DNA of 64,000 nt from Escherichia coli O127:H6 str. E2348/69 (GTDB lineage Bacteria; Pseudomonadota; Gammaproteobacteria; Enterobacterales; Enterobacteriaceae), in assembly GCF_000026545.1 (NCBI RefSeq), contig NC_011601.1. One strand, given 5' to 3'. The notes beneath the pieces are model-generated. The model was given only the letters and a program-made list of their open reading frames with translations, ran no database searches and was not told the origin of the DNA. Below, one piece after another: positions 45,128 to 45,450 of this stretch (within the stretch, counting starts at the first letter, position 1; the number at the start of each line of letters is the position of its first letter). A program made the position numbers and the translations under genes.

Positions 45128-45183
45128 AAACATAGCCGTTGCTATGTTTCATGCTACATCAAATGAGAATGATTATCAAATTC
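45128..45183. promoter_or_regulatory. mntH promoter with MntR palindrome and Fur-box-like site
   Basis: AAACATAGC-CGTT-GCTATGTTT at 45128..45149; GAGAATGATTATCAAATTC at 45165..45183. Confidence 0.65.
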
Positions 45184-45450
45184 ATTTAAATGGGTTGTGA
45201 TGATTTCTCTGATAGACCAGGATTATGACTACGAAAAGATAGATGACTCGAATGTTATGGTTATGTTTAATATTAGCACATTTACATAACCTTCCGCTTC
45301 CATACACAACATAGCAGAAATGTATGACAGATCACTATTTTTGAAGCTTGTCACAGGACGTCATTATAGTGTGTGTCAGATCTCGTTTTCCTTAACCATG
45401 TTACATAGAATGTGCACGGAAATTTAACCTGCCTCATATTTGGAGCAAAT

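Follow-up and report, generated by a model that had tools for sequence, protein, structure and literature searches.

The segment at positions 45128-45186 of the DNA examined in this study, a stretch of 64 kb referred to here as the window, is very probably the core of a sigma-70 promoter driving mntH on the minus strand, and contains two independent metal-dependent repressor sites, one for the iron-responsive regulator Fur and one for the manganese-responsive regulator MntR. The arrangement is already known, having been described since 2000-2002 and curated in RegulonDB, and the earlier note on this DNA was right to present it as such, given that the same layout is found in K-12 and appears in reviews and RegulonDB-derived tables. 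This study covers the operator sequences, their uniqueness in the window, their conservation across genera, their recurrence at manganese-transporter promoters and their fit to the transcription start and ChIP-exo data of K-12, while independent repression is taken from the literature, in which Fur and MntR are described as independent repressors of mntH (PMC8632737; PMC4207228, RegulonDB-derived; PMC3852070).

Positions 45060-45460 of the window are 100% identical to E. coli E2348/69, and the same region is found at 90-100% identity in 5424 of 5426 complete E. coli genomes, with at least 95% identity in all but three records. The regulated gene, mntH (43877..45115, minus strand), was recognised from its open reading frame and the RefSeq annotation and encodes a 412-aa Nramp-family Mn2+/H+ symporter. 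It lies directly downstream on the minus strand, so that 45128-45186 falls within the first 70 bp 5' of the gene, and its Shine-Dalgarno sequence, GAGG (45122..45125, minus strand), was read from the sequence and is kept in nearly all aligned species. DNA encoding mntR is present in 5421 of the 5426 complete E. coli genomes, with the gene itself located outside the window. Yersinia is described as having no MntR (PMC3852070). On the other side of the intergenic region, nupC starts at approximately 45452 on the plus strand. Several additional features were observed on the nupC side, including inverted repeats GGTTATGT / ACATAACC at 45250-45294 and conserved TGTGA...TCA blocks resembling CRP/CytR sites. 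The published K-12 nupC starts (2512868 and 2513008/9) correspond to approximately 45277 and to 45417-45418 in the window. A second K-12 Fur ChIP-exo peak, P76 (U00096.2 2511044-2511073), maps to 45431-45460, over the ribosome-binding site and start of nupC, and coincides with an 8-3-8 inverted repeat, CATATTTG-GAG-CAAATATG, at 45435-45453. Further along, at 46654-46702, pdeA (yfeA) directly follows the 3' end of nupC, and the IS186 element that K-12 MG1655 carries at that position is absent.

A promoter scan of the minus strand returned TTGATA-17-TAGCAT, with 9/12 matches and a spacing that fits the mapped transcription start site (TSS). The -35 hexamer, TTGATA (45174..45179, minus strand; -36..-31), lies inside the Fur box and is invariant in 36 aligned sequences, while the -10 hexamer, TAGCAT (45151..45156, minus strand; -13..-8), lies between the two operators, ends 7 nt before the TSS, and has invariant first (T), second (A) and sixth (T) positions with middle positions that vary across genera. 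The TSS itself, an A at 45143 (minus strand, +/-1 nt), is inferred by transfer from K-12, where the SMRT-Cappable-seq operon table lists a single TSS for b2392 (mntH), at 2512734 on the reverse strand (PMC6131387 supplement). The transfer used the K-12 mntH ATG at 2512706, and the sequence from -13 to +5 is identical between K-12 and the window. Transcription from this position would give a 28-nt 5' UTR and would begin inside the promoter-proximal arm of the MntR palindrome. Relative to this start, the Fur box (GAATTTGATAATCATTCTC on the sense strand; 45165..45183, minus strand) occupies -40..-22 and the MntR operator occupies -6..+16. The Fur box comes first in the orientation of mntH, and the 15 bp between the two boxes (45150-45164) hold the -10 hexamer. 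The operators had previously been described as adjacent, which is correct in that they lie side by side in the mntH promoter; however, they do not abut, but flank the -10 element at a distance of 15 bp. An alternative promoter, with a -35 of ATCACA (45201..45196) and a -10 of GATAAT (45177..45172) separated by 18 nt, was considered and rejected: the mapped TSS fits TTGATA/TAGCAT, the sixth position of the alternative -10 is G or C in several Citrobacter species, and OxyR would sit over the alternative -35.

The MntR operator (45128..45149, minus strand) reads AAACATAGC-AACG-GCTATGTTT in the sense of mntH. Its two 9-nt arms, AAACATAGC (45128-45136) and GCTATGTTT (45141-45149), are 100% complementary and form a 9-4-9 repeat with CGTT between them on the plus strand, located 12 nt upstream of the mntH ATG and overlapping the inferred transcription start. 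The pattern AAACATAGCNNNNGCTATGTTT has a single match in the 64-kb window even when up to 3 mismatches are allowed (0.04 expected from shuffled sequences). The description of this site as a near-perfect palindrome of the MntR type therefore stands, with arms that are complementary at 9/9 positions, that are unique in the window and that reproduce the K-12 mntH sequence; the qualifier "near-perfect" is accurate because the spacer is not self-complementary. The spacer is also where this strain differs, with the base at 45138 (+6 of the transcript) changing the sense-strand AAAG to AACG in 24 of 5136 E. coli records, among them E2348/69, O127:H6 strains and A0 34/86. All 35 of the other enterobacterial mntH promoters that were aligned have AAAG. 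Judging from the sequences of other MntR sites, among which the spacers differ freely, the change from AAAG to AACG is probably neutral for MntR binding. In K-12, a DNase I footprint of MntR reportedly covers a nearly perfect palindrome, and repression by Mn2+ is reportedly abolished in mntR mutants; the operator of the present strain is one spacer base away from that footprinted site.

The K-12 mntH promoter is the closest known counterpart of the promoter described here. The locus is orthologous and has the same gene order (ypeC-mntH / nupC), and the Fur box, -35, -10, palindrome arms, Shine-Dalgarno sequence and start codon are identical. The two differ in the palindrome spacer (AAAG in K-12, AACG here, at 45138) and in four base changes between the Fur box and the -10, where CGTTTGGCA in K-12 is replaced by CATTTGATG here; these four changes put a stop codon into the small open reading frame ypeD and alter an upstream copy of CATAGC, both of which are considered below. 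Dual repression of K-12 mntH by Fur and MntR has reportedly been described.

The distribution of the palindrome was examined by scanning one genome from each of 100,044 species for the 18 specified bases without mismatches, which identified 87 loci. At 34 of these, the palindrome is located 12-14 nt upstream of an mntH orthologue (85-99% protein identity), in species of Escherichia, Citrobacter, Salmonella, Kluyvera, Pseudocitrobacter, Intestinirhabdus and further Enterobacteriaceae. At four more enterobacterial loci, the palindrome precedes a sitA-type gene; three of these genes were confirmed as members of the ZnuA family (Pfam PF01297), with the fourth read from sequence. The remaining 49 lie outside the enterobacterial family (they include L052-L057, L009-L011 and L030-L031), and some are evidently repeats within single metagenome-assembled genomes (MAGs). 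The palindrome occurs in multiple copies in a few unrelated MAGs, with six contigs carrying it in "Bacterium P11BWT0bin.6", three in a Saprospiraceae MAG and two in a Nitrospiria genome, and is also found in many Clostridia MAGs. Its multi-copy occurrence in unrelated MAGs suggests repeat elements or the site of another regulator.

Since the loci were selected by an exact palindrome match, the conservation of the palindrome itself is circular, and only the flanking sequences offer an unbiased test. The alignment of 36 mntH upstream regions shows conservation of TTGATAATCATTCTCA, TAnnnT, the palindrome, GAGG and CTATCAGAGAAATCA, with freely variable sequence between them. The TTGATAA and ATTCTCA blocks hardly vary from genus to genus, and conservation of the Fur core extends 10 nt past the -35 hexamer. 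As judged from this alignment, the Fur core passes what is a fair test of conservation.

The same operator sequence recurs at other promoters connected with manganese. At the sitABCD promoter of Salmonella and pathogenic E. coli, the exact AAACATAGC-N4-GCTATGTTT repeat and a neighbouring TGATAAT-type Fur box precede the genes of a Mn2+ uptake system. The sitA-type loci differ from mntH in that the gene encodes a ZnuA-family periplasmic binding protein of an ABC importer, in that a second MntR-like repeat (TATAGCAATTGCTATA or similar) adjoins the first, and in their spacers, which are TACG, CGCA/TGCG, AGTT and TGTA. Promoters with the palindrome, the second MntR-like repeat and a Fur-like box were located at L020 6330-6500, L022 6390-6520, L025 1280-1420 and L042 500-640, from Enterobacter, Cedecea, E. 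coli SCPM-O-B-8794 and Dryocola. MntR and Fur are both said to act at the sitABCD promoter. The half-site core ATAGC-N4-GCTAT is also shared by two further K-12 genes, mntS (ATATAGC-CTGT-GCTATAT) and mntP (AGACATAGC-TTAG-GCTATATTA, plus a further GCTATGTTT half-site), both of which reportedly have MntR sites. In contrast to the mntH operator, the mntS and mntP repeats are imperfect, matching at 7-8 of 9 positions per arm. The mntP sites are located far upstream, and there MntR acts as an activator and not as a repressor (PMC8632737).

An alternative explanation for the palindrome is that it acts as RNA, forming a Mn2+-responsive, terminator-like hairpin in the mntH 5' leader in which the GCUAUG strand could alternatively pair with an upstream copy of CAUAGC. 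A "Mn2+ riboswitch" or terminator-like leader structure was reportedly described in Salmonella mntH by Shi, Zhao and Kong in 2014. A review describes this element and reports it in E. coli as well (PMC8632737). If fully transcribed, the repeat would form a predicted 11-bp hairpin of -11.1 kcal/mol (-12.4 in K-12; z of about -5 against shuffled sequences), with the CAUAGC...GCUAUG pairing and a short run of U after the stem as in the described leader RNA, and K-12 has a second CATAGC just upstream. This fold energy is not independent evidence, however, because any DNA palindrome yields an RNA hairpin, and covariation is not assessable because the arms never vary among the 36 sequences. The K-12 TSS maps to 45143, within the 5' arm, so the main transcript, which begins AGCAACGGCUAUG, cannot form the stem; a leader RNA of the described kind would carry both the hairpin and the upstream hexanucleotide within the transcript, and the mapped K-12 start provides no such transcript. 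Folding of the 47 nt from near the TSS is no better than that of shuffled sequences (z -0.08). In addition, the upstream CATAGC reads TGTAGC in the window and differs between genera, which at this place share only the -10 pattern TAnnnT, and the same palindrome occurs in other positions at the sitA, mntS and mntP promoters. A terminator scan found nothing at the palindrome, an Rfam search of the region returned only noise (snoZ185, E = 1.2), and the leader element is without an Rfam family. An RNA role for the palindrome is therefore unlikely and would amount at most to an extra layer of control on a minor, longer transcript.

A more specific version of this idea is highly improbable. Under this scenario, a minor transcript starting upstream of 45185 would carry the whole hairpin together with ypeD as an upstream open reading frame ending inside the mntH start region, would act as a leader-peptide/terminator attenuator that could be the basis of the "Mn2+ riboswitch", and would have been lost as a regulatory layer in the E2348/69 lineage. 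The loss would have come about through a TGA at ypeD codon 9, the change of CATAGC to TGTAGC, and the change of the loop from AAAG to AACG, and strains of this lineage would now control manganese import through proteins alone.

It is less plausible still that the stretch is conserved as the protein-coding gene ypeD, with the operator-like sequences partly a by-product of coding constraint. The ypeD footprint (K-12 b4819, 29 aa; 45096..45185, minus strand) extends across the Fur box, the -10 and the MntR palindrome into the start of mntH; ypeD is annotated in K-12 and in many RefSeq genomes. A preprint (Stringer et al. 2021) attributes it to ribosome profiling with start-codon trapping and names homologues in Salmonella and Citrobacter. 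In the present strain, however, codon 9 is TGA (45161..45159), and the only PGAP call is a hypothetical protein of 18 aa at 45152..45096. An ATG-started frame of at least 24 aa is found in 17 of the 36 enterobacterial sequences and is broken in the other 19, through a stop at codon 9 (4 sequences), a frameshift giving 11 aa (13 sequences) or loss of the start codon (2 sequences). The residues that are conserved fall exactly on DNA elements, with NLIIIL on the Fur box, KHSKGYV on the palindrome and EA on the Shine-Dalgarno sequence. The ypeD ATG (45185) precedes the mapped K-12 TSS by 42 nt, and the same DNA boxes occur at sitA promoters without such a frame. As far as these alignments indicate, the reported conservation of ypeD may be that of the operators, and ypeD is not needed for the operator explanation.

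The Fur box is the part of the two-operator reading for which the sequence match by itself is least strong. The plus-strand 19-mer GAGAATGATTATCAAATTC (45165-45183) matches the Fur consensus GATAATGATAATCATTATC at 14/19 positions on the plus strand and 15/19 on the minus strand, the sense of mntH, and a second register matching at 14/19 lies 6 nt away, at 45159-45177. This bears out the earlier note, which had placed a Fur-like box with about 14 of 19 matches here, and refines the score to 15/19 on the sense strand. When scored against the 7-1-7 Fur motif TGATAATNATTATCA (also written TGATAATnATTATCA), the core TGATAATcATTCTCA at 45164-45178 matches 13/14, and there are 2 matches to this motif in the window at up to 2 mismatches compared to 0.38 expected. 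Scores of at least 14/19 against the consensus occur at five places in the window (10 strand-specific hits compared to 2.1 +/- 1.3 expected from Markov simulations), and scores of at least 15/19 number 3 compared to 0.2 expected from the same type of simulation. The other matches of 14-15/19 are located at 14054-14072, at 56131-56149 and 56284-56302, both inside yfeN (approximately 56044..56808, plus strand), and at 61027-61045, in the 5' end of ligA. A score of 14/19 alone is weak evidence that lies within the reach of chance in a 64-kb window, and the consensus score is not diagnostic on its own, since other matches lie inside yfeN and ligA.

The Fur assignment rests instead on position, conservation and published ChIP-exo data. 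The Fur box sequence is identical in K-12, and in iron-replete MG1655 cells, Fur ChIP-exo peak P75, an intergenic peak assigned to mntH, spans 2510767-2510798 (U00096.2; Gao 2023, PMC10164565 supplement). This peak maps to 45154-45185 in the window and encloses the Fur box; the mapping used U00096.2 numbering with the mntH ATG at 2510728, a position that agrees with Chen et al. 2007. The Fur cluster predicted in that study at 2510784, -56 from the mntH ATG (PMC2189734), corresponds to 45171, the centre of the 7-1-7 core. Among nine E. coli strains, mntH belongs to the Fur core regulon (PMC10164565), and deletion of fur increases its expression by 1.2-3.3 log2-fold (PMC10164565 supplement). Both operators are identical in their specified bases between the window and K-12. 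A 22-nt segment of the K-12 promoter has reportedly been examined in a Fur titration assay. The idea that the Fur-like box is a chance resemblance of an AT-rich -35 region, with iron control of mntH being indirect, has a negligible probability: a 14/19 match is not rare, being reached at five places in the window, but the published ChIP-exo peak coincides with the position of the box, mntH expression rises upon fur deletion in all nine strains, the 7-1-7 match is 13/14, conservation runs through ATCATTCTCA, well past the -35 hexamer, and an equivalent box adjoins the MntR box at sitA promoters. In light of the ChIP-exo data and the conservation, a chance origin is excluded.

A third candidate regulatory site, located outside the segment that had been noted earlier, lies just upstream of the two repressor sites. 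Activation of mntH by OxyR has reportedly been observed. The OxyR-like sequence ATAAtcctggtCTATcagagaaATCAtcacaacCCAT (45190..45226, minus strand; -83..-47) reads ATAA-N7-CTAT-N7-ATCA-N7-CCAT and matches ATAG-N7-CTAT-N7-ATAG-N7-CTAT at 12/16 positions, which is at chance level (4 hits in the window compared to 3.1 expected). The block CTATCAGAGAAATCA (45215..45201) inside this site is conserved across genera, and the position of the site, just upstream of the -35, fits an activator. OxyR is listed as an activator of mntH (PMC4207228, RegulonDB-derived; PMC8632737).

Taken as a promoter with two repressor sites, the segment suggests a different point of interference for each regulator. Fur loaded with Fe2+ would bind GAATTTGATAATCATTCTC at -40..-22 and, because this box contains the -35 TTGATA, would block the recruitment of RNA polymerase. 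MntR, a DtxR-family dimer, would bind AAACATAGC-N4-GCTATGTTT at -6..+16 in its Mn2+ form and, because the repeat spans the transcription start, would block open-complex formation or promoter escape. We infer this steric mechanism at each operator from the geometry. The OxyR-like site upstream (-83..-47) could account for induction by H2O2. The dual repression of mntH by manganese and iron proposed in the earlier note is thus borne out, with mntH directly downstream, the Fur box within the ChIP-exo peak, the MntR palindrome matched and the literature in agreement.

As a discovery, this finding carries little weight; its contribution is that it fixes the positions of the boxes in E2348/69 to the base and ties them to the mapped TSS and the ChIP-exo peak. 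It also holds two cautions for annotators. The mntH leader hairpin reported in the literature is not contained in the main K-12 transcript, and the "conservation" of YpeD goes no further than that of the Fur, MntR and ribosome-binding sequences, with the frame broken in approximately half of the relatives examined. Under the proposed arrangement, synthesis of the Mn2+ importer would be confined to cells that are short of both iron and manganese or that are exposed to peroxide.
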